The notes under the pieces were generated by a model. The model was not told the origin of the DNA. It saw nothing but the letters and a program-made list of their open reading frames with translations, and did no database searches. DNA of 43,991 nt from Escherichia coli O157 typing phage 9. The DNA lies in the sequence record KP869107. The stretch is one strand, 5' to 3'. Every line of letters begins with the position of its first letter. Position 1 is the first letter of the stretch. This document shows positions 1,188 to 43,991 of the stretch, in pieces. The translations under genes and the position numbers were made by a program.

Positions 1188-1250
1188 TCACCCATAAGGT
1201 AACAAAAATCAAGGATAGTTACCTATGGGGTGCATTTACCTGTTGGGTAA
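1188..1250. promoter_or_regulatory. Operator cluster: three TTACC-N5-GGTAA-type sites between the divergent repressor and Cro-like genes
   Basis: Sites at 1188-1202 (TCACCcataaGGTAA), 1219-1233 (TTACCtatggGGTGC), 1236-1250 (TTACCtgttgGGTAA). Confidence 0.5.
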
Positions 1251-1305: not shown

Positions 1306-1890
1306 ATGAAAAGTATCCAGGACGTCCGCAGGCAAAATCTCAACGACTTGATCGACCGTGAATTCAATGGTGTTCAGACGCGGATGGCAGAAAAACTTGG
1401 AACTCAGGCAAATCTGGTAAACCGCTGGGCTCTTGGCAAGAAGGTTATCGGCGACCAGGTTGCGCGAAAAATTGAAGCTGCCGCCAATAAACCCCGTAAC
1501 TGGCTTGATATCGATCGCTCGCTTTCTCAGGAAGGTTTTCAGCCTGTCGGACCAAGCGACATTGGTCAACTGGCGGCTCACAACCTGGAACGCTGGATGA
1601 GCGAAAGCCGCGACCTTTCAACGCAGGGAAAACTTCACCGCGCATCCGGCGTCGCCCAGGTAACAATCAGCCGCCTGTTAAACAATGAGGTCAGCGTTTC
1701 CATTTCCACCCTGGAGAATGTTGCATCCGCATTTGGGCGTCACGGATATGAATTACTGATTCACCCGCACGACCCCGCGACTATCAACTATGACCGCTCG
1801 CGCTACGCATTGTTACCTGAAACAGAGAAGGCAAAGATCGAAAGTTACATTGAATTTGTCATCAACCAGAACGAAAAAAACAAACAATAA
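1306..1890 (+). CDS. Phage repressor-like protein with two HTH domains and no peptidase S24 (autocleavage) domain
   Basis: 194 aa, ATG at 1306; two HTH-like segments (MAEKLGTQANLVNRW... and ASGVAQVTISRLLN...); no Ala-Gly/Ser-Lys cleavage module recognisable. Confidence 0.55.
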   Translation: MKSIQDVRRQNLNDLIDREFNGVQTRMAEKLGTQANLVNRWALGKKVIGDQVARKIEAAANKPRNWLDIDRSLSQEGFQPVGPSDIGQLAAHNLERWMSESRDLSTQGKLHRASGVAQVTISRLLNNEVSVSISTLENVASAFGRHGYELLIHPHDPATINYDRSRYALLPETEKAKIESYIEFVINQNEKNKQ

Positions 1891-1947: not shown

Positions 1948-2024
1948 TTACCTAACGGGTAATTTTTTTAACTCATATCTATTGACATCAAACCAGATAC
2001 GCATAATTATTACCTCAACGGTAA
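1948..2024 (+). promoter_or_regulatory. Promoter/operator region of the recombination operon (TTGACA flanked by two perfect TTACC-N5-GGTAA sites)
   Basis: Sites at 1948-1962 and 2010-2024; TTGACA at 1983-1988; located just upstream of the 2044 and 2199 genes. Confidence 0.45.
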
Positions 2025-9165: not shown

Positions 9166-9324
9166 AATTACCACCGTTTACTGTGCATAAAGAACCCCCT
9201 TAGTTGGTGAGTCCATTATACACAATAAACCATATATGGTTAAAATAACTTAGAATTGATCCTATCGAAATTACCCGATAGGTGATATTATTTATTGAAA
9301 TAATACAGCTTAACGTACCTGGTC

Positions 9325-10341
9325 ATGAAAGATAAGAATTTGAATATTGAGTTGATTAGAGTGGCTGCTTGCTTTTTGGTGGTTGTTCTTCATTCTGTAA
9401 TTATAGGTATGAATGAAACAGGCTCATCAGGATGGGATATATTAAATATAATAGAATCTTTTACCAGAATATCTGTACCGTTATTCATTATGATTTCTGG
9501 GGCTTTGCTTATTAAAGAAAGTACAAATATGAATTCGTCATTAAAACGAGCAAATCGGCTATTCATTATTCTACTTTTCTGGTCGGCGATATATTACTTA
9601 TATCGTTCACATGTAAATAGTTTCCCCATAGATGTGAAATCATTTTTTAATTTATTTTTTCGATCGCAGATATTCTATCATATGTGGTACTTATATGCAG
9701 CCATTGGATTCGTTATCATTATGCCATTACTTAGTAAATTCTATTTACACTCAAATAAAATAGATGTTGTAATTTTAGTATGGTTATGGATGCTTCTTTT
9801 ATTCTTTAGTTTATTAAATGTATATCTTGGATTGAATTTAAATATCAACAATCTATTTCAAGTTAGTATATTTTCCAGCCTTGCTGTGTACTTGCTTCTA
9901 GGGAAGATAATTTTAGATAATCAAGTTAACATGACAAACTCAACAAAAATAATGTTAACCATTATGCTGACTGCATGTACGTTTGCGACCGCTTTTATAA
10001 CAAAGAATATTTCTGTTTACAGGGGACCGGTAAACCAGATGTTTTATGATAACTCGTCTTTGTTTATTGCCATGTCTGCAATATGTTTTATGGTGTTCAT
10101 GATAAACACCCCTGTTAAAAACAAAACGATATTACACATAGTGAAATTTATTTCTCCCTGCACACTAGGGATTTATCTTGTCCATCCATTAATCATTGAC
10201 ATACTCAGGAGATTTTTGCTTGATAAATATTCGATCCATCCAGAGATGTTTATCGTTATTCCTCTTTCTTTTATCGTGTTCTTAATTTCATTAGCCATCG
10301 TAGTTTTTTTAAGAAAATTTGGGTTGTCACGTGTAATATGA
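9325..10341 (+). CDS. Acyltransferase-3 family membrane protein (putative O-antigen acetyltransferase, lysogenic conversion)
   Basis: 338 aa polytopic membrane protein; markedly AT-rich compared with flanking phage DNA; sits next to the tailspike as in serotype-converting phages. Confidence 0.7.
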   Translation: MKDKNLNIELIRVAACFLVVVLHSVIIGMNETGSSGWDILNIIESFTRISVPLFIMISGALLIKESTNMNSSLKRANRLFIILLFWSAIYYLYRSHVNSFPIDVKSFFNLFFRSQIFYHMWYLYAAIGFVIIMPLLSKFYLHSNKIDVVILVWLWMLLLFFSLLNVYLGLNLNINNLFQVSIFSSLAVYLLLGKIILDNQVNMTNSTKIMLTIMLTACTFATAFITKNISVYRGPVNQMFYDNSSLFIAMSAICFMVFMINTPVKNKTILHIVKFISPCTLGIYLVHPLIIDILRRFLLDKYSIHPEMFIVIPLSFIVFLISLAIVVFLRKFGLSRVI

Positions 10342-12981: not shown

Positions 12982-13137
12982 GTTAAATCTCCAGATAGTC
13001 GCAGCACCCGTTGCGCCGCATATCCGGTTATTCTATTACCTGAAAAACCACATATGGATAGATAACACATAAATACGAACAGATATTACCTTTCAGGTGA
13101 TTCGCAAAACGTGCTGGATAGCAAACAAATTATTTGC

Positions 13138-13452: not shown

Positions 13453-13493
13453 GGAGTGCTTATATTTACCGCAAAGGTAAATATAAGCACTCC
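13453..13493. promoter_or_regulatory. 41-bp perfect palindrome (18-bp arms, 5-nt centre) containing TTACCgcaaaGGTAA
   Basis: ggagtgcttatatttacc-gcaaa-ggtaaatataagcactcc read directly. Confidence 0.6.
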
Positions 13494-14472: not shown

Positions 14473-14491
14473 GTGACATGTCACGCTCACG

Positions 14492-30620: not shown

Positions 30621-30688
30621 ATCAATGACTCCGTACGCAATTAAATTATTACCAATTTAACCACATATGATTTATTTATCGTAGATAG

Positions 30689-30725
30689 TTGACATTTAAC
30701 GCACGAATTATTACCTTTCAGGTAA
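30689..30725. promoter_or_regulatory. TTGACA plus perfect TTACC-N5-GGTAA site
   Basis: gttgacatttaacgcacgaattaTTACCtttcaGGTAA; same architecture as the site at 1983-2024. Confidence 0.4.
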
Positions 30726-31047: not shown

Positions 31048-31124
31048 GTGGCATTAGCTCAGTTGGACAGAGCAACCGCCTTCTAAGCGGTTGGTCGCAG
31101 GTTCGAATCCTGCATGCCACGCCA
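31048..31124 (+). tRNA. tRNA-Arg (anticodon TCT)
   Basis: Cloverleaf read by eye: acceptor gtggcat/atgccac, D-loop tagctcagttgg, anticodon loop cttctaa, T-loop ggttcgaatcc, 3' CCA. Confidence 0.8.
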
Positions 31125-31327: not shown

Positions 31328-31699
31328 ATGAGTGACAAAGACATTGAATCTGAAATTCAGGCTAAAGGTTTAGCCGCGCCGCGCGTTACGCCAGACCATA
31401 TCGAGAGCATTATTGCTCAGGAGGCATATTTCACAGCAGAAGATGGTGTCTTTGGCGTAGCCATAAAAGCGAAACATACTGGCGGAGAGGTAAACTACCA
31501 GCCGCACGAATCACTTTCTCTGCTGACGTTCTGCGTTCTGGTGCTGCGCAACGGCTTCACCGTCACCGGAGAGAGCGCCTGTGCAAGCCCGGAAAACTTT
31601 GATGCGGAAATTGGTCGGAAGATTGCCCGGCAGAATGCTGCAAACAAAATCTGGATGCTTGAAGGTTACTTGCTGAAGCAGAAGTTAAGCGAGCAATAA
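31328..31699 (+). CDS. Hypothetical phage protein (possibly N4 gp49 / Sf6 gp66-like family)
   Basis: 123 aa; AAGGTGAG RBS; C-terminal GESACASPENFDAEIGRKIARQNAANKIWMLEGYLLK resembles that family from memory, not verified. Confidence 0.4.
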   Translation: MSDKDIESEIQAKGLAAPRVTPDHIESIIAQEAYFTAEDGVFGVAIKAKHTGGEVNYQPHESLSLLTFCVLVLRNGFTVTGESACASPENFDAEIGRKIARQNAANKIWMLEGYLLKQKLSEQ

Positions 31700-31715
31700 C
31701 ACCGTGACATGTCAC

Positions 31716-31789: not shown

Positions 31790-33265
31790 TTAAGCATAGG
31801 GATCGTAATCTGTAATGGCCTTGCCTTGCTGGTTCTGCTGCCCGGGAATTCGCAGACGCTTAGACACAGGGAACGCAAACGTCAGCAGTAGCGCATCGCC
31901 TTTACCCGGCGAACGCCCAAGCCGCTCCTTGATATCTTCCTTCGGTTCGATAACGATTTTACCGTCCACTCGAACTTTGTACTCTGCCGTCGACAGGTCG
32001 TCCGCTGTTTCCTGGTCATCCAGCATCCCGCCCAGCCTCAGCCATGTCTTGCATGAGTTGAACATCTCCCCACGCTTGTTGAGCATCTGCGGGTCAGTAG
32101 ACGCGCCACCGAACGGAACAAGTTGCCATGTACGACCCCAGCCGTCACCGATTGACTTCAGACCAGTTCCGTAACCGAAGTCGATGAACACTGCGTCAGC
32201 CTGGTACTGGTCTTCAAAGTCAGCGATACGCTTCGCCATAATCAGATCGTCAGTGGTCTTGTTGCCAGTCCACAGCACCTTACTGTGCAGCCCCTGCCGC
32301 AGGTATATCACAGCGTCATCAACGCCGGAGTATGCCGGGTCAACGCCGATTATCACCGGAGCATGTGCAACCTGCGCAGCGGTTACCACCCGTTTCATTG
32401 CCTCGTCAGTAAGGCCGGTAGGGATAAACTGCAATTCAGATGCATCCGGGAATATGCCGCGCACACGGATTTTAACGAAGTCGCTGCCTTCCCCGTAGTC
32501 ATCAACCCATTTCTGCAACTGCTGTTTGTTAGTGCCTTCCACCGTCCGGCTGTCAATCTGCGCAGTTTTCCAGCGGTGTTTATATTTGCGGAAACATTCG
32601 CGGAAACGCCCGGTGTTACGTGTAGGGTTTCCGAATGCCACCCAGATAATCTCAGTGTCTTCGTCCGTCAGCGCACCCTCTGCTACCTCCCACACCAGAT
32701 CGGCAATGTTGGATGCTTCGTCGAATACCACGATGATGCGTTTGCGCTCGTTGTGTAGTCCGGCGAATGCCTCAGTGTTGTGCTCAGACCAGGGGATTGC
32801 GTCAGCTCGCCACCGCTTGTCGTGCCCAGGGTCATTGCTGTACATCGCGGTAGCGGTACAGGTAAACCAGTCTTTCGTGATAGCAAGGTTCGACCACTTG
32901 ATAATTTCCGGCCAGGTCTTCGTTCGTAGCTGGTTGTCGGTGTTGGCGGTCACCACGACCTTACAATCCTCGCAAGTGGACATGCCCCAGTTGATCAGCA
33001 TTGAGATGAATGCGGATTTACCAATACCGTGACCCGAAGCGCGTGCCAGCATAAGCGGCTGATAGCGCGTCTCTGGATTCTGCAGGTGATCACGTATCTC
33101 TCGGAACGCATCAGCCTGCCACTGACGTGGACCGGTGGCATGTGCTAATTCAGTCCCCTCTTCCCCCCACGGGAACGCATAGAGGGCATAGCCAAGCGGA
33201 TCGTGAGTGAACCCTGCAATATCCTCGATCAACTGCTCTTCAGGAGATAACGCTGTATCTGTCAC
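31790..33265 (-). CDS. terL: Terminase large subunit
   Basis: 491 aa; Walker A-like ARASGHGIGKSAF; classic ATPase plus nuclease two-domain length; GTG start overlapping the TerS stop. Confidence 0.85.
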   Translation of the reverse strand: MTDTALSPEEQLIEDIAGFTHDPLGYALYAFPWGEEGTELAHATGPRQWQADAFREIRDHLQNPETRYQPLMLARASGHGIGKSAFISMLINWGMSTCEDCKVVVTANTDNQLRTKTWPEIIKWSNLAITKDWFTCTATAMYSNDPGHDKRWRADAIPWSEHNTEAFAGLHNERKRIIVVFDEASNIADLVWEVAEGALTDEDTEIIWVAFGNPTRNTGRFRECFRKYKHRWKTAQIDSRTVEGTNKQQLQKWVDDYGEGSDFVKIRVRGIFPDASELQFIPTGLTDEAMKRVVTAAQVAHAPVIIGVDPAYSGVDDAVIYLRQGLHSKVLWTGNKTTDDLIMAKRIADFEDQYQADAVFIDFGYGTGLKSIGDGWGRTWQLVPFGGASTDPQMLNKRGEMFNSCKTWLRLGGMLDDQETADDLSTAEYKVRVDGKIVIEPKEDIKERLGRSPGKGDALLLTFAFPVSKRLRIPGQQNQQGKAITDYDPYA

Positions 33266-33858
33266 TGATTACCATCCTGACGTTCTTTGAGTCGCTTCCT
33301 GGCTGCCGCTATGCGATCAGCAATTGTCACATTCACATTAACATCCAGGCGTTCTTTGAATGCGTTGACGTCGACGTGCTTACCAATCAGTTCGAGGTTC
33401 TTCACCTTGTCAGGCCATTTAATTTTTTTGAGGATTGTCTCTATCGAATCCTCGTTCATGTTCATGATGGTCGATGACAGATCAAAGCCACTAAGCGTAG
33501 TGCGCCAGATTTTCGGCCACTCACGGATTGGTTTAAGGCTCCCATCGTCGTTGAGGATATCGATCACGTCCATCTGGTCGATCTCCACCAGGCGCATGAG
33601 AACGTAATCAGCACTGACGCGCATTCGTTTGTTGCGCTCCTCCATCAACTCGGCAATCCGTTTTTGAATGCGTTCATCGCGCATCATGACACTGGCTTTA
33701 ACTGCCGCTGTATTTGGGGAGAATCCTGCGTTAATCGCTGCCTGAGTCTGGTTTTCAGGCGTTTTGATGTATGACTGGCAATAAGCCTCCTGCATTGCTG
33801 TGAGCGGCTTAAATTGCGTTGATTTGCGTTTATAGGTTTTAGGTTCAGCAGGCATCAT
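33262..33858 (-). CDS. terS: Terminase small subunit
   Basis: About 198 aa from ATG 33858 (GGTGG RBS); directly upstream of TerL. Confidence 0.6.
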   Translation of the reverse strand: MMPAEPKTYKRKSTQFKPLTAMQEAYCQSYIKTPENQTQAAINAGFSPNTAAVKASVMMRDERIQKRIAELMEERNKRMRVSADYVLMRLVEIDQMDVIDILNDDGSLKPIREWPKIWRTTLSGFDLSSTIMNMNEDSIETILKKIKWPDKVKNLELIGKHVDVNAFKERLDVNVNVTIADRIAAARKRLKERQDGNQ

Positions 33859-33862
33859 AACC

Positions 33863-33897
33863 ACCGTGGTAATAGTTACCGTTGTGGTAATAGTACC
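33863..33897. promoter_or_regulatory. Tandem 17-bp direct repeats containing GGTAATAG(T)TACC immediately upstream of terS
   Basis: ccgtggtaatagttacc / gttgtggtaatagtacc read directly. Confidence 0.4.
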
Positions 33898-33901
33898 ATG
33901 C

Positions 33902-33927
33902 AAAATAAAGCCGCCATAGTTGGCGGC
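33902..33927 (-). terminator. Rho-independent terminator between the early/middle genes and the late (terminase) operon
   Basis: gccgcca-tagt-tggcggc with T-rich tract on the minus strand. Confidence 0.5.
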
Positions 33928-33976
33928 AGTATTCAAAACCCATCAAATTCATCATGCATAATCTACTCGTAACATG

Positions 33977-34315
33977 TCACACTATTAATTTCGTTTCATG
34001 CCAGCCTTTAGTCACCCAGCATTGCGAGTCACCATTACACGGGCATGAATTAACTGGAACTCTCTCGCCGCACTTACCGCAACGTTTTCTGCTGATCGAT
34101 TTTATACGCCCGTGCACGCGTGCATCATCCTGGCGGATCAGTAACGCTATATACTCACCAAATTCGTAAGGCGCACGCCCGGGGCGACGCGTAGCACAGT
34201 TACGCTCCAGCATTTCAATTTCCTGAGCATCAAGCACAATTTCCAGCTTACGCACACCAGATGCAGCTTGTCTGGCTCTCTGAGCGGCTTTGCGCTCTGC
34301 TGCTGATTTAGCCAT
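33977..34315 (-). CDS. Small protein with RHH-like N-terminus and C-terminal Cys cluster (candidate regulator)
   Basis: ATG at 34315 with AAGGT RBS; RKLEIVLDAQEIEMLER (strand-helix pattern) and CGKCGERVPVNSCPC. Confidence 0.4.
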   Translation of the reverse strand: MAKSAAERKAAQRARQAASGVRKLEIVLDAQEIEMLERNCATRRPGRAPYEFGEYIALLIRQDDARVHGRIKSISRKRCGKCGERVPVNSCPCNGDSQCWVTKGWHETKLIV

Positions 34316-34589
34316 CAATATTTACCTTTATCGCGTATACCTTTACCGGTTTATCGCCGAAGTGCGGATGTGTGATTGTCTTGATTTCATATCCGTCATA
34401 CGGAACATCAATTCTACGGCTGGAATCGTCGCGCTTCGGATATCCCTTTGTGATAATCAGGCGGTCATACTCCCGGAACATAATTCGCTTATTCCAGTAG
34501 TCATTACACAGGCGATACTCTTCCGTTTTCTCTCCGCGAATCATGGCATCGAAGTATTCACCTTTGACGGCAAGTTGCAGGTTAGCCAC
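34308..34589 (-). CDS. ASCH-like domain protein
   Basis: 93 aa; AVKGEYFDAMIRGEKTEEYR...LIITKGY pattern; GTG start with GGAGG RBS. Confidence 0.45.
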   Translation of the reverse strand: MANLQLAVKGEYFDAMIRGEKTEEYRLCNDYWNKRIMFREYDRLIITKGYPKRDDSSRRIDVPYDGYEIKTITHPHFGDKPVKVYAIKVNIDG

Positions 34590-35283
34590 GGTTAACCTCC
34601 AGTTGTGGTGCTGCTTCTATAGCAGCCCTGTAACCAGCAGCATGACCGCGAAAGTTAGCAATCTCTGATAGCCACGCTTTAATCATGGCCTGAGTTGGCT
34701 CCTTCGGCACCATAACCCAACTATCCGGAGTTCCCGGAGAGTTGCCAGCCAGTCTACGCAACACAGCCTTAACCGCCTCAATACGGTCATCATCAACTTT
34801 TTCTACAATATTGGAATTTAAATACTTCGAAGCCTTGCTATGCCAATCGCTGGTTTTAGGGTCTTGTCCATCCATCAAACGCCAAGCTTCAGCGATTAAC
34901 TCATAGCCAGTAACAGTGGCTTCCTGCGCATCACCAATCAGTTGTGTGATCTCTCTTTCAAGCATGCTTAGAGCGTTAGGCATTGGTTTTTCTTCAGGTA
35001 CTACTGGCACCGGAGGGGCGGCATAAACAGGAATAACGTCCGCTTGCTCTTTATTGCTTTCATCCGTTAAAGCCCAGAATAATTTCCCGGCCGGATGTTT
35101 GAAAATATAAGCAACTGGCTCTGCTTCCAGCGATGCCAGCGTAATTTCGGCCAGCTTGAGGTGAATAACCGCCGCATCAGAAGCGCCCGGGACTCTTTCC
35201 ACCGCACCGCGAAGAACCTCAATATTCTTCTTAGCCTGCTCAATCAACTGCTCTTTGGTGAACTCTTTGGTAATAGTGGTCAT
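34582..35283 (-). CDS. Hypothetical protein
   Basis: 233 aa ORF, ATG start; no family recognised. Confidence 0.45.
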   Translation of the reverse strand: MTTITKEFTKEQLIEQAKKNIEVLRGAVERVPGASDAAVIHLKLAEITLASLEAEPVAYIFKHPAGKLFWALTDESNKEQADVIPVYAAPPVPVVPEEKPMPNALSMLEREITQLIGDAQEATVTGYELIAEAWRLMDGQDPKTSDWHSKASKYLNSNIVEKVDDDRIEAVKAVLRRLAGNSPGTPDSWVMVPKEPTQAMIKAWLSEIANFRGHAAGYRAAIEAAPQLEVNRG

Positions 35284-37934: not shown

Positions 37935-38011
37935 TTACCTCTAAGGTAATTAAAAACCACATAAGACACGAAATCAATAGATCTAAGAATATTTTGTTAC
38001 CCATTAGGTAA
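37935..38011. promoter_or_regulatory. Two perfect TTACC-N5-GGTAA sites between the P-like and DUF1064 genes
   Basis: 37935-37949 TTACCtctaaGGTAA; 37997-38011 TTACCcattaGGTAA. Confidence 0.45.
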
Positions 38012-38849: not shown

Positions 38850-39374
38850 GCTTCAGGGCTGTTCCAGTGCGGAACGTTGTTATCAGGTAATGTTGATTGC
38901 TTCTGTCTGCTAATCTGCAGCCGCCTTGCCAGCTTCTGCTCCCACTGTGCCTGATGGTATGCCTTACCCTCAGCCATCCAGTAAATTCTGAACTCTGCAA
39001 GTTCCTGTGCCGTTGGCAGACTGTCCAGGTAGATCCCCTGCAATGAGCTTTTCCGAAGAAAGTCATCTGATGGCTGCCATTGTTCATGCATGACAAATTT
39101 GCCTAATTGCCCTGGCCCACCAAGAGGAACAAAGTTATTCATCACGGCGTTGTTTGCGCCGGGGTCATGATGCACAGAATCCCCGTTTTTTGTCCTGCTC
39201 TCCCTCTCTTGGTTAAATGACTGGTTATATGACTGGTTATATGACTGGTTCTGGATCCCGTTTTTGGGATCATTCAACATCCCGTTTTTGGGATCATTCA
39301 ACATCCCGTTTTTGGGTATATTCCCGTTTTCGGTAACATTACCGTTTTCGGGTTCATTGACCCCCTCTCGGTTG
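38831..39374 (-). CDS. Replication initiator O-like, C-terminal part plus iteron-encoded linker; N-terminus lost in the N run
   Basis: Minus-strand frame open from the N run through the iterons (MLNDPKNG repeats, NQSY repeats) to a stop at 38831; overlaps the P-like start. Confidence 0.6.
39093..39374. repeat. Direct repeat, copy 2 (truncated by N run at 39375)
   Basis: Identical to 1-270 apart from an extra 12-bp tandem unit at 39229-39240. Confidence 0.95.
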
Positions 39375-39474
39375 NNNNNNNNNNNNNNNNNNNNNNNNNN
39401 NNNNNNNNNNNNNNNNNNNNNNNNNNNNNNNNNNNNNNNNNNNNNNNNNNNNNNNNNNNNNNNNNNNNNNNNNN
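39375..39474. other. Run of 100 N (unresolved or masked sequence) at the junction between the two phage modules
   Basis: Read directly. Confidence 1.
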
Positions 39475-40077
39475 CACGGCATTCATCGCATCAAGAACCG
39501 GTGATAAATCCTCACCACCATTACCTTCTGCCTGCTGTGCTGATTGCTGAACACGGGACTGGAGATAGTTATTTTTACGGATGAGCGAAGCCACCGCGTC
39601 ACCAATTTCCGGATACATCTCCCTGATACGGGCAATCTGCTCATCAGAAATTTTTTCGTTTTCCGGTAACGGTGTGGGCTTCATACCGGCCTGGTGGATC
39701 TGAGACGTCAGCAGTTCCACCCTGCGTTTTTCTTCAGCTATCTGCCCACGAAGAAGTGCGGCTTCCTGTTCGGCCCGTTGCTTACCGGAACGTTCAGCCT
39801 CAAGGACTTCATAGGGAATGACGTGTTTACCGTCGCGGGTGAGCACCCCCTTCGCTTCCGGCTCCTTCACGTCCTGCGTCTGCTCCACACTGGCATCCGG
39901 CGTCGGTGCCACATTGTTATCGCCCGTCTGAGTCTGTGCTTCCTCATCCGCATGTTTTTCCGTGGTATCTTCCGTCACGACGTCCTGTGCGTGACTGTCA
40001 ATATCCACATCCCCAAGTCCTTCCAGCATTTTTTCCAGTTGTTCCGGGGTTTCTTCACCCGTAAATTCAAAATCCAT
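39475..40077 (-). CDS. Putative scaffolding-like protein of a P22-type head module, 3' end lost in the N run
   Basis: Acidic N-terminus and coiled-coil-like middle; located downstream of the portal as the scaffold gene is in P22-like phages. Confidence 0.35.
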
Positions 40078-40186
40078 AAATAACTCCGCATGGTCTGTTT
40101 ATCGGACAGATCCGAATGGTTGAGTAAATAAGGCTTATCGCTGCCCCCGCGAATAAGCGCACCGCTCCCGGAACGCTTACCTCCGG

Positions 40187-40216
40187 AAACAAAAAACCCC
40201 GTACGATGACGGGGTT
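40187..40216 (-). terminator. Rho-independent terminator after the P22-type portal gene
   Basis: aacccc-gtacgatgac-ggggtt with T6 on the minus strand. Confidence 0.45.
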
Positions 40217-40235
40217 CAGTTGAAGCCAGAGTTTT

Positions 40236-42336
40236 CAGAGCGACATTTCATTCATCCGCTGTTGTAACGTATACAGCATCTGTTGCTGAAGAACGTCCTG
40301 CTCCTGTTCCATATTCTGTACGCCGGTAATGATTTCTGCCGTATGTGCCTGGTTAAGCGCATNNNNNNNNNNNNNNNNNNNNNNNNNNNNNNNNNNNNNN
40401 NNNNNNNNNNNNNNNNNNNNNNNNNNNNNNNNNNNNNNNNNNNNNNNNNNNNNNNNNNNNNNNNNNNNNNNNNNNNNNNNNNNNNNNNNNNNNNNNNNNN
40501 NNNNNNNNNNNNNNNNNNNNNNNNNNNNNNNNNNNCTGCCTGTTGTTGCTGAAGTGCCTGTTGTTGTGCCGCTACTTCCTGTTCTTCCGGCGTCATTTCA
40601 TCCGGTGATTTTGGCGTCCCCAGCGCAGCACGAATACGCTCAACAAACTCCTGTTTCTGCGGCACATCCAGAAGATTAACCCACAGGTCGAGCACAACAG
40701 CCTGCACCTGAGGCGGCAGCCCCTGAATAACCTCTGACATTCTCTGTGCAAGCTGTGCCTTAAACGCCGGTGTCTGCTGAACAGGCGCCAGCGCAATATG
40801 TGTATTTAACCTTGAAATATCATTGGTCAGTTCACCATTATCACCTTCAGCATTGAGGACAATGGTCTGGCGACGCTGGCGATCATCGCGATTAATCACC
40901 ACTGCATGATTACGGCGTTTTTTCAGGTCATCGAGAAGATAAGCCAGCAACAGTCTTCCCACCTGCTGGCAGGCAAACTGGTAGTTATCGTTGATTTCCG
41001 CAAGGGTTGTGGCCCCCTGCTCCACCAGGTTACTGATAGCCACGCCTGACGTCGCACCTGAATCCTGCCCGAGAAATGCGGAATACACTCCNNNNNNNNN
41101 NNNNNNNNNNNNNNNNNNNNNNNNNNNNNNNNNNNNNNNNNNNNNNNNNNNNNNNNNNNNNNNNNNNNNNNNNNNNNNNNNNNNNNNNNNNNNNNNNNNN
41201 NNNNNNNNNNNNNNNNNNNNNNNNNNNNNNCTGCATGACCTGAAACTGCTGGCTGGCAACCTGAAAATCCTGCTCAACCCGAAAAACATCTGCGACACTT
41301 TTCTGATTTTTTCGGACCGGATTCAGTTTAATAATGCCATCCGGACGTTCGATCTGCTCCATCAGGTCGTTGTCTGACAACTGGGTGGCATCCTCGTCCA
41401 TAATCACGCGTTTGGCCTGAAGCAACCAGGTCAGCTTGATACGACGAAAATTCACCTCATCCTGTGCCGGAATGGCGCGGGAAATTAGCCCGTATGGCTC
41501 CCCGGTTTTATCCTTTCGGTATCCCCAGAAAGGAACCAGCGGAAACATCCCCTGCGGAGCACTACAGGGGCGATCCACAATAAAGTGTGGCCCGACAAAC
41601 CAGGCTTCACGAATACGGCTTACCCGCCCGACTTTCACCTGAACCCGCCCGGATGCCACAGCTACCGCCTGCATCAGATTATTTTTATCAAAGGCCACCA
41701 CCCGTCCATTACTGAGTTCAATCACCGGAAGACGCTCGAATGTACGGTAATAAACCACCTGAAGCAGCACACGACGGCGTTCACGCTGAAGCCATTCGTT
41801 CTGCTGTCGATCCCATGACTGATACTCTTCCCATGCACTCATCAACGGACTGGGCTGGCCTTCAGTAACCGTGGTATCGACAAAACCACGCCAGTCATCA
41901 ATGGCATAATCGATAACCTGAGCCATTCCCGGGAATGTAGCTTTTGCCTCATCGGTATCCATCCAGCGGCGACGCATCAGCCATCGGCAGTCACTTAAAT
42001 CAGCCTCCCGGCTCAGCCAGTCCCAGAAAACCTCATTCCGGCTGACAGTAGACACCTTAAATTCAGGCCCGAACGGATCGCTGTTTCGTCTGACCTCCAC
42101 CCAACTGAGGCCCGCCTTGATTTGTTCCGCATAGGCATCAGAGCGGGCTTTATTCATATTGCCAAGGCGGCATGCATCGGCAAATTCAGCATTAATAGCT
42201 TCAGCCAGTTTTTCAGTTTCATCATCTGGCTCGTCTGACATCACCACCAGATCAGTCCGTGTTTTGGCCTCCATTCCCAGAACGCCATCGACGGTAGGCG
42301 CGATGAGGTTATGGATAGTCATCGGCTGACCGCGAT
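40236..42336 (-). CDS. Portal protein, P22-type, interrupted by N runs (5' end inside the N run at 42337-42558)
   Basis: Long portal-sized reading frame with a Gln-rich C-terminal helical region (QEVAAQQQALQQQQA); true C-terminal frame ...QQRMNEMSL ends at 40236. Confidence 0.55.
40363..40535. other. Run of 173 N inside the portal gene
   Basis: Read directly. Confidence 1.
41092..41230. other. Run of 139 N inside the portal gene
   Basis: Read directly. Confidence 1.
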
Positions 42337-42558
42337 NNNNNNNNNNNNNNNNNNNNNNNNNNNNNNNNNNNNNNNNNNNNNNNNNNNNNNNNNNNNNNNN
42401 NNNNNNNNNNNNNNNNNNNNNNNNNNNNNNNNNNNNNNNNNNNNNNNNNNNNNNNNNNNNNNNNNNNNNNNNNNNNNNNNNNNNNNNNNNNNNNNNNNNN
42501 NNNNNNNNNNNNNNNNNNNNNNNNNNNNNNNNNNNNNNNNNNNNNNNNNNNNNNNNNN
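42337..42558. other. Run of 222 N spanning the terminase/portal gene junction
   Basis: Read directly. Confidence 1.
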
Positions 42559-43991
42559 GAGCCATCCAGTGTGTGGTTCTGCGTTTATCCGTTTTCTGTT
42601 TTACCCTCACCGGCATTCTGGCGCGCATCTCCTGGGCAATCATGTAGCTCATGAGCTGATCATCAAAGCAGCCTTCCTGTGCATTCATGGAGCCTTTCGC
42701 GTCATAAACGTAGGTGTTCATTTCCGATAATGTGCCTGACCAGCGGATCCCTGATATTCCATTATTCAGAAGCGTTTTCATTCCTTCGGTCAGAACAGGT
42801 TTGCTCTGACGGGTTGTCAGCCAGCCAAGGCGGGGCGTATCGTCGTCATATGCCTGGTCAAGATGCTGTTCGTTGTAGATATAACGTGTCGGATAGAGTT
42901 CCCGGAGTTTCAGGATAACTGCATGTCCGTGATTATTACGCTCCGGCCCCACAAACGCGTTGTTATACATACGACAGACCTGCGAAATGAGATGAGCAAA
43001 AAGTTCAGCATCGAGATGCCCGAACCAGTGAGCCACCTGCTCGCCATTACTGCGTTTGACAACATCCAGCGATGAGCGGTCTCCGTGCTCCAGCCCTTCG
43101 GCAGTATCTGCCCCANNNNNNNNNNNNNNNNNNNNNNNNNNNNNNNNNNNNNNNNNNNNNNNNNNNNNNNNNNNNNNNNNNNNNNNNNNNNNNNNNNNNN
43201 NNNNNNNNNNNNNNNNNNNNNNNNNNNNNNNNNNNNNNNNNNNNNNNNNNNNNNNNNNNNNNNNNNNNNNNNNNNNNNNNNNNNNNNNNNNNNNNNNNNN
43301 NNNNNNNNNNNNNNNNNNNNNNNNNNNNNNNNNNNNNNNNNNNNNNNNNNNNNNNNNTGTTCATCAGTAAGCGTGATGTTCATTGCCTTCTCAACCGCAG
43401 AAAAATACGTCATTTTTTCCCGTGACAGCTTCAGCCCGCTTTCCGGCACTCTGGCGCTGTATTTAGGATCCTGCCACCAGGCGTAAAAATGGAATTTATA
43501 ATCCTGTGCCGTCAGCAATAAGCCTGATGCAGTGATCTCCTGTGCTCGGTTACTCATCTCGTAAAAATCACCACCCACGCCTTCAGCAGTGGACTCATCA
43601 AAAATAATGCATTCATCAGAGACGGCATTAAGCGTACCGGTTCGCAGTTCTTTCGCCTTAGCCGGATATTTCGCGCAAATTTTGCCGTGCTCTGAGATAT
43701 GCAGGCGCTGCACCGTACCTGAACGGAATGAGGTTGCCACCTGGATACTCGAGCCGTGACCAAACAGGATATAGCCACCGCTGGCACCGCTACGACGTTC
43801 AACGATGGTGAATGAGGCTCTCAGCCAGTCAGGGAGATGATCAAACGGTACAGCAATTTTTGTGCGGAAAATTTCACTGGCAGCCTGTTTATCCTGAGCG
43901 ACGATCCCGCATTTGAGATGCGGAATGAATAATGCCTGGTCGAGAAGATAAATATCAATGGCTGTGGAAAATCCCAGCTGGCGCGCTTTCA
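42559..43991 (-). CDS. Terminase large subunit, P22-type; N-terminus beyond the window end, interrupted by an N run
   Basis: Minus-strand frame from the window end: ...ILFGHGSSIQVATSFRSGTVQRLHISEHGKICAKYPAKAKELRTGTLNAVSDECIIFDESTAEG...; after the gap ...VAHWFGHLDAELF...DDQLMSYMIAQEMRARMP (nuclease-domain-like). Confidence 0.55.
43116..43357. other. Run of 242 N inside the terminase gene
   Basis: Read directly. Confidence 1.

Follow-up and report, generated by a model that had tools for sequence, protein, structure and literature searches.

In the genome of Escherichia coli O157 typing phage 9 (sequence record KP869107; the whole stretch of 43,991 nucleotides (nt) that was analysed is called the window), a gap of 118 nt separates the gene of a 112-aa protein from terS, the gene of the small terminase. 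We consider it probable that this gap holds a terS promoter that is insulated by a terminator and operated by the immunity repressor Rep, and not a dedicated site for a late activator. By its sequence, the gap appears to be a compact junction of terminator, promoter and operator. A preliminary description had taken the stretch for a candidate late-gene control region before the terminase operon, and our results agree that it is a control region of the packaging operon, since a terminator, a promoter-like element and operators lying over the terS ribosome-binding site (RBS) were found there. Its further proposal that repeats in the gap are a dedicated late-activator or antitermination site of the 112-aa protein did not hold, because the repeats belong to a genome-wide palindrome that tracks a Rep-type module instead. 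Throughout, we infer protein-DNA binding and promoter activity from the sequence.

All genes of interest are on the minus strand. Their order is the replication/nin-like early-right operon, a 233-aa open reading frame (ORF), an ASCH protein, the 112-aa gene, the gap, terS and terL. Between 33200 and 35300 the sequence shares 100% identity with E. coli O157 typing phage 10, and the matched parts of phiV10, a Uetakevirus (epsilon15-like temperate podovirus), also show 100% identity. The early-right operon ends with the 112-aa gene, behind which a terminator had already been noted. This terminator, T_A, is a textbook hairpin with a T-tract (33927-33901). The stem has 7 pairs, of which 6 are G-C, and a loop of 4 nt; the T-tract follows directly after the G+C-rich hairpin on the transcribed strand, and the fold with its flanks has -15.8 kcal/mol. 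In the relatives the hairpin and the T-tract are retained with differing stem sequences, and T_A is absent only where an ORF with an SOS box has been inserted. By these features, the early-right operon is terminated by the predicted T_A. In the phiV10 RefSeq record, terS starts at a TTG at 33936 (224 aa), and such an ORF would enclose the terminator and both operators. The start is likely the ATG at 33858 or 33855, behind GGTGG, rather than this TTG.

The repeats before terS were then analysed. The direct repeat itself is present, as an exact 11-mer, ACTATTACCAC, which occurs twice on the minus strand (33894-33884 and 33876-33866) at a spacing of 18 nt and at no other place of the window. In extended form the copies are GGTA(-)CTATTACCAC and GGTAACTATTACCAC. 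Random sequence of 44 kb would be expected to have about 0.28 close 11-mer repeats of this kind, and the window has five such loci. However, the phase of the half-sites had been taken wrongly. Among the relatives the upstream copy does not keep its half-site GGTA, and TGG, TGT or TGA is found at this place; the conserved unit is TATTACC-N5-GGTAA, which bridges both repeat copies. The direct repeat is two adjacent putative operator palindromes of the form TTACC-N5-GGTAA, O1 and O2 (Table 1), taken out of phase; its unit is not GGTAA-CTA-TTACC. In the groups of SPN1S, 66FD and BUCT554, O2 is kept as TTAC(C/T)-N5-GGTAA.

When the whole window was searched for TTACC-N5-GGTAA with at most one mismatch, 14 matches were found (8 of them exact), where 0.79 were expected and none of 100 shuffles gave more than 3. 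The copies all fall between genes, they occur on both strands and, by the phiV10 annotation, nearly all of them adjoin a transcription-unit start. Only the copy at 13466 deviates from this; it is located downstream of gene p24 in a longer hairpin. This copy forms the centre of a long palindrome (13453-13493) with perfect 18-bp arms and a 5-nt spacer, GGAGTGCTTATATTTACC-GCAAA-GGTAAATATAAGCACTCC. A layout in which a terminator is followed by an operator and then by a promoter or RBS with a second operator is seen at three places, and the locus before the DUF1064 gene matches that of terS. In SPN1S, 18 copies (10 exact) are found at equivalent places, including immunity-region sites at 33554-34463, and this is the top 5-N-5 palindrome of that genome.

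Gene insertions between the 112-aa gene and terS allowed us to see to which of the two genes the palindrome belongs. About 20 IMG/VR loci have a 68-aa ORF at this place, and BUCT554, BUCT711 and several prophages have an ORF with a near-perfect LexA box. With both insertion types the promoter/operator core stays beside terS, whereas the terminator is kept with the 68-aa ORF and lost with the SOS-box ORF. The comparison of related phages, which had been proposed as a check of the activator reading, speaks against it: the repeats stay with terS upon insertions, and the 112-aa family has a palindrome of its own at its stop codon.

The window encodes a 194-aa helix-turn-helix (HTH) protein homologous to Rep of Salmonella phage SPC32H. 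The NLVNRW stretch is conserved between the two repressors, and the overall identity is only about 42%. Rep is reported to bind palindromic sites as a tetramer (PMC9638917). The repressor gene in the window is flanked by operators at 1188, 1236, 1948 and 2010, so that the palindrome of the terS gap is also found in the repressor/cro region and at early promoters, as is expected of an operator set. Omnitron, AH07 and ZF40 have a homologue of the 112-aa protein together with other repressors, and these genomes have no exact copy of TTACC-N5-GGTAA. Rep homologues are nearly confined to the Uetakeviruses. One case outside this lineage is Pseudomonas phage PseuP_224, an unrelated lambdoid siphovirus with its own Q, which has neither the 112-aa gene nor the GTGAC palindromes described below. 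Its cI shares only the N-terminal (HTH) domain with Rep, and two TTACC-N4-GGTAA palindromes are located directly upstream of cI. The motif is thus found with the Rep DNA-binding domain across unrelated phages, on the basis of this one outside lineage. A half-site spacing of 10 bp is typical for HTH dimers, and since TTACC-N5-GGTAA has this spacing, it suits such a dimer. We assigned the palindrome to Rep because of its placement, the copies in SPN1S, the lack of exact copies in Omnitron, AH07 and ZF40, the finding in PseuP_224 and the 10-bp spacing. With good confidence we regard it as the operator of Rep, possibly common to the Cro-like protein, and it appears to follow the Rep-type immunity module and not the 112-aa gene.

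The promoter of terS was examined in 25 distinct relatives, which were picked only for a terS-like start behind an operator. In these relatives the 14 nt before O1 have the consensus GCRTGnTAbTA(T). The T, G, T, A, T and A are invariant in all 25, and the degenerate positions are the n of TGn (A in 9, G in 8 and T in 8) and the third base of the hexamer (C in 12, G in 9 and T in 4). These two positions are the ones least read by sigma-70. In typing phage 9 the element is TGgTACTAT, which resembles TGnTATAAT and has the TG, the A2 and the T6 of an extended -10 sequence. The hexamer ends with the T with which the operator begins, and this register equals that of the early-left promoter TTGACA-17-AATTAT (2010). 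We infer that TGgTACTAT is an extended -10 sigma-70 promoter with a start near 33883. With this start, O1 would extend from about -7 to +8 and O2 from about +12 to +26, and terS would begin about 26 nt downstream. The positions of O1 and O2 relative to this promoter-like element are those of a repressor and not of an activator.

These results lead us to propose the following mechanism. T_A would close the early-right operon, and the terS promoter element would follow directly. Rep would occupy about 14 sites that head nearly every operon, and therefore the terS-terL operon would be silenced directly by Rep in the lysogen. When Rep is removed, terS-terL would fire from its own promoter, with no dedicated late activator on the repeats. 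The 112-aa protein would act separately, via the palindrome GTGAC-N2-GTCAC at its own stop codon and before two other terminators. The data suggest a decentralised design in which one repressor site is placed on nearly every operon, including the packaging operon, and terminators insulate the units. O1, O2, T_A and the promoter may serve as testable targets for engineering or inducing phages of the epsilon15/phiV10 type, including the O157 typing and reporter phages.

Several points weigh against this mechanism. The terS promoter has no recognisable -35 element and was not listed by a simple promoter scan. Late timing would be left without an explanation if every operon were only repressed by Rep. 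In almost all loci with enough flanking sequence, the 112-aa gene is found 60-1130 nt upstream of terS, so that it may have a role in late expression. In addition, nearly all Uetakeviruses inherit Rep, the operators, terS and the 112-aa gene together, so that the choice between Rep and a Cro-like or other HTH protein depends on the placement of the sites and on PseuP_224, where the spacing is N4 and not N5. In the literature searches, whose coverage did not include the primary papers on SPC32H and epsilon15, neither palindrome was found to be described, nor was late control in Uetakeviruses. Late regulation is not treated in the ZX5 paper, and no late-gene regulator for phages of the epsilon15/phiV10 type was found in the literature searched or in the phiV10 record.

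The 112-aa protein had been described from the sequence as having a ribbon-helix-helix (RHH) N-terminus and a C-terminal Cys cluster, and both parts are supported by our analysis. Residues 20 to 75, approximately, were predicted in a monomer model to form an RHH fold with an N-terminal beta-strand and two helices. The C-terminal cluster, C-x2-C-x8-C-x-C-x5-C, is a Cys4-type module. By this model, the protein is a predicted RHH DNA-binding protein with a zinc module. NF008671 was weakly matched by 16 of the 57 family members. A weak similarity to TraR was found in the C-terminal half (E 0.02 in a profile search of the PDB and 66% probability with hhalign), and PRK11019 was matched by 2 of the 57 members. 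No member matched PF01258 (zf-dskA_traR), from which the Cys spacing also differs, the family did not match PF04606 (Ogr_Delta), and a Foldseek search against the PDB gave nothing significant.

At the stop codon of its gene is the palindrome mentioned above. It has one mismatch in typing phage 9 and is exact (GTGACATGTCAC) in most close relatives. In 41 of 49 protein clusters GTGAC-N2-GTCAC overlaps a TGA stop or is found 2-9 nt past a TAA or TAG stop, and these clusters include members of 30-45% identity from Pectobacterium, Pantoea, Klebsiella and Pseudomonas phages and from metagenomic viruses. The arms are invariant and the central dinucleotide is variable. Among the genome loci selected by terS, 19 exact copies were found in 58.8 kb with the gene, compared with none in 361.5 kb without it. 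SPN1S, Omnitron and ZF40 have 3 exact copies each and AH07 has 2, where a rough estimate gives about 0.05 expected. Half-sites spaced by 7 bp suit RHH proteins such as omega, and since this is the spacing of GTGAC-N2-GTCAC, the palindrome suits an RHH protein. It is likely the cognate site of the 112-aa protein. The 112-aa family is found in many unrelated temperate phages, and together with the palindrome it would offer a protein-site pair that is ready for biochemistry. In a Pseudomonas lundensis prophage (locus L105, 1638-1690) a second inverted repeat, GTGACTA-N7-TAGTCAC, is located 13 nt past the stop-codon palindrome GTGACGTGTCAC, which suggests tandem sites in some lineages.

If the 112-aa protein bound the tandem GGTAA..TTACC repeats and activated or antiterminated transcription into terS, it would be a functional counterpart of lambda Q, whose place its gene takes as the last of the early operon. 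The RHH fold and the location upstream of terS in nearly all Uetakevirus-like loci agree with this, as does the lack of another candidate among the proteins scanned. The preliminary description had recognised no lambda Q-like antiterminator, and indeed the 112-aa protein and its two upstream neighbours gave no antiterminator match in Pfam, PHROG or NCBIfam; with terS included as the fourth protein scanned, Q, Ogr and other antiterminator families were without a match, and none is named in the phiV10 record. We nevertheless hold this explanation to be very improbable. The repeats are 2 of the 14 copies of a palindrome that is also found in the immunity region, the three phages named above carry the 112-aa gene without an exact copy of the motif, and the family has another conserved palindrome. 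Upon gene insertions the repeats remain with terS and not with the 112-aa gene, and they extend from -7 to +26 relative to the promoter-like element, a place that fits a repressor and not an activator. Furthermore, the 112-aa homologue of AH07 is encoded in the early-left operon beside xis/int, and AH07 has a separate Q-like antiterminator before the lysis and terminase genes, which argues against a general late-activator role of the family. RNA-level control of terS translation, by base pairing between the upstream repeat and the Shine-Dalgarno and start region, was judged slightly less probable still. For the 137-nt region a fold of -43.8 kcal/mol (z = -4.55) is predicted, and in the minimum free energy (MFE) structure ACCAC pairs with GUGGU of the RBS and the first AUG is paired. 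However, a stable RNA fold is expected from any DNA palindrome, this palindrome is also located at promoters and non-transcribed positions on both strands, and no Rfam family matched 33000-35000 at E up to 1. The MFE structures of 57 relatives differ between groups without a common pairing scheme, and an RNA switch or translational operator was rejected since the structures of the relatives are inconsistent despite the strong fold in typing phage 9. The least probable explanation is that the repeats are a pac site or a binding site of TerS. The large terminase is annotated as PacB-like, and pac sites are often found in or next to terS and can be short repeats, as in SPP1, P1 and P22. Against this, the motif recurs at 14 intergenic places, some of them in the immunity region, and is a symmetric 15-bp palindrome of the HTH-dimer type. 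The pac site was rejected because the motif is genome-wide and not specific to packaging. The second repeat, R2, had also been tried as a sigma-dependent pause element like that of lambda PR'; this was dropped, since R2 consists of operator halves and neither a Q-like protein, among those scanned, nor a downstream terminator was found.

A further explanation places the 112-aa protein not on the repeats but on its own palindrome, GTGACATGTCAC, 41 nt upstream of T_A (23 nt in SPN1S), where it would alter termination, either by read-through into terS-terL (antitermination) or as a roadblock that insulates. All three exact or near-exact palindromes of this phage and of SPN1S precede an intrinsic terminator by 1-41 nt, on the side of the good T-tract. 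Since about 1% of the genome is within 45 nt upstream of the nine annotated terminators, three of three would occur by chance with a probability of about 1e-6 (a rough estimate). In many other clusters of the family a terminator also follows the stop-codon palindrome, and the weak likeness of the C-terminal half to TraR is a likeness to a protein that binds the secondary channel of RNA polymerase. On the other hand, other lineages have an ORF or an SOS-box promoter directly after the palindrome and no terminator, and the extra copies in ZF40, AH07 and Omnitron are inside coding regions. The TraR-like helix corresponds to helix B of the RHH core and lacks a free acidic tip, and the zf-dskA_traR model is not matched. 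Taken together, we think that the 112-aa protein probably modulates transcription at operon ends and that control of T_A in this manner is rather unlikely. Because two of the three junctions with the palindrome are convergent, where antitermination would yield only antisense RNA, we lean to an insulating or roadblock role over antitermination. A more specific version, in which the family is a site-specific (anti)termination factor that is tethered at GTGAC-N2-GTCAC, contacts the passing RNA polymerase and gates operon boundaries including the one from the early genes to terS, must be called distinctly unlikely. If true, such a DNA-tethered (anti)terminator would be a new class of elongation regulator in temperate phages.

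The Rep-operated terS promoter that we favour has parallels in known systems. The repressor of the window is homologous to that of the SPC32H Rep/Ant system (PDB 5D4Z, 5D50), and a Bro-N antirepressor-like gene is found in phiV10. Immunity with dispersed operators is known from P1 C1 with its many operators, from phiC31 with conserved inverted repeats and from the stoperators of L5 gp71. As in these phages, one repressor site is found at many intergenic positions, and operons including late ones would be silenced singly. The repressor family and the site are different, however, and the symmetric sites here often come as pairs; a terminator directly precedes two pairs and the terS site. With lambda Q, PR' and qut the locus shares a small regulator gene that ends the early-right operon before the late genes, and a -10-like AACTAT in the initially transcribed region. 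In contrast to lambda, no Q-family protein was recognised among the proteins scanned, the terminator precedes the promoter-like element instead of following it, and what is repeated is an operator that occurs genome-wide.

For the 112-aa family, the predicted fold is that of RHH regulators such as Arc, Mnt, CopG, omega, ParD, MazE and the E. coli YbfE 'LexA regulated protein', and the 7-bp spacing is that of the omega heptads. Unlike these regulators, the family has a long helix, the Cys4 module and a C-terminal helix, and its site is at the 3' end of its own gene and not at the promoter. A helix followed by a CxxCGxxxP zinc finger and another helix is shared with TraR/DksA (PDB 6N57, 5W1S; YbiI 2KGO), whereas the CxxC-x17-CxxC spacing of these proteins and a free N-terminal acidic helix tip are absent, and the similar part is joined to an RHH domain. 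P2 Ogr, P4 Delta and 186 B are likewise small Cys4 proteins of temperate enterobacterial phages. The 112-aa family differs from them by having no match to PF04606, by the RHH fold and by another target palindrome and genomic placement.

Table 1. Positions of the genes, control elements and palindromes in the window.
Feature	Position	Strand	Remarks
terS (small terminase, Terminase_2)	33262-33858	-	Pfam PF03592, E 1e-29
Operator O2	33858-33872	.	TTACC-ACGGT-GGTtA, one mismatch; overlaps Shine-Dalgarno GGTGG (33865-33861) and A of first ATG (33858)
Operator O1	33876-33890	.	exact TTACC-ACAAC-GGTAA; bridges junction of the two repeats
Extended -10 promoter-like element TGgTACTAT	33890-33898	-	TG 33898-33897, hexamer 33895-33890
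Intrinsic terminator T_A	33901-33927	-	stem GCCGCCA-ACTA-TGGCGGC 33927-33910; T-tract TTTATTTTG 33909-33901
Stop-codon palindrome GTGACATGT(T)AC = GTAACATGTCAC	33969-33980	.	one mismatch; overlaps TGA stop of 112-aa gene
Gene of 112-aa predicted RHH + Cys4 (zinc) protein	33977-34315	-	phiV10 gp55 / epsilon15 gp49 family, phrog_536
Exact GTGACATGTCAC	31704-31715	.	4 nt past stop of Sf6-gp66-like gene, 4 nt before terminator common to terL; SPN1S counterpart 2174
Exact GTGACATGTCAC	14473-14484	.	1 nt upstream of terminator closing long virion operon; SPN1S counterpart 19662
Immunity repressor, 194-aa HTH protein	1306-1890	+	homologue of Salmonella phage SPC32H Rep; PDB 5D50, E 4e-42
Two operator copies, rep / divergent cro-like intergenic region	1188-1202, 1236-1250	.	
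Two operator copies, early-left promoter region	1948-1962, 2010-2024	.	first after rep terminator; second abuts TTGACA-17-AATTAT
Two operator copies before DUF1064 gene	37997-38011, 37935-37949	.	first just past terminator behind P-like gene; second over DUF1064 RBS
Operator copy between portal operon and divergent tRNA-Arg/gp66-like unit	30711-30725	.	
Further single operator copies			before int; between oac and lysis genes; after terminator behind cro-like gene
Two operator copies around tail-fibre region			

The inserted SOS-box ORF (BUCT554, locus L090, 1790-2190; also L093, L096, L098 and many IMG/VR loci) encodes 109 aa and has its own promoter, TTGACT-17-TATACT, and the near-perfect LexA box TACTGTTTAAATGTACAGTA. 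A label as UmuD-like, given from its N-terminus, was withdrawn, since the ORF had no Pfam match. It may be an SOS-controlled moron or an antirepressor.

A second palindrome, ACCAYATRTGGT, is also over-represented in the window, with 5 matches compared with 0.29 expected (833-844, 9229-9240, 9677-9688, 13047-13058 and 30660-30671). Four of the 5 copies are in intergenic control regions, 18-51 nt from a TTACC-N5-GGTAA site, and the copy at 9677 has its nearest such site about 400 nt away.

The last 4.5 kb of the window (39475-43991) are unlike phiV10 and show 100% identity to the large terminase/portal region of Stx2 phages (933W, VT2-Sakai). Five runs of N are found in the end segment (39375-43357), and positions 39093-39374 duplicate positions 1-270 at 96% identity. 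The whole window therefore has the look of a phiV10-type genome to which an unrelated segment of a Stx phage is attached.

Inside the gene of a DnaT-like replication initiator, tandem repeats are located at 113-260 (and 39217-39306). They consist of a 24-bp unit, ATCCCGTTTTTGGGATCATTCAAC, with just over two exact copies and degenerate ones, and of a 12-bp unit, ATGACTGGTTAT, which is present twice. These repeats look like origin iterons. Between terL and the portal operon, the plus strand has a small unit with a tRNA-Arg (TCT) at 31048-31124 and a gene of the N4 gp49/Sf6 gp66 family at 31328-31699. This unit is apparently driven by a TTGACA promoter at 30689, which overlaps the operator at 30711.

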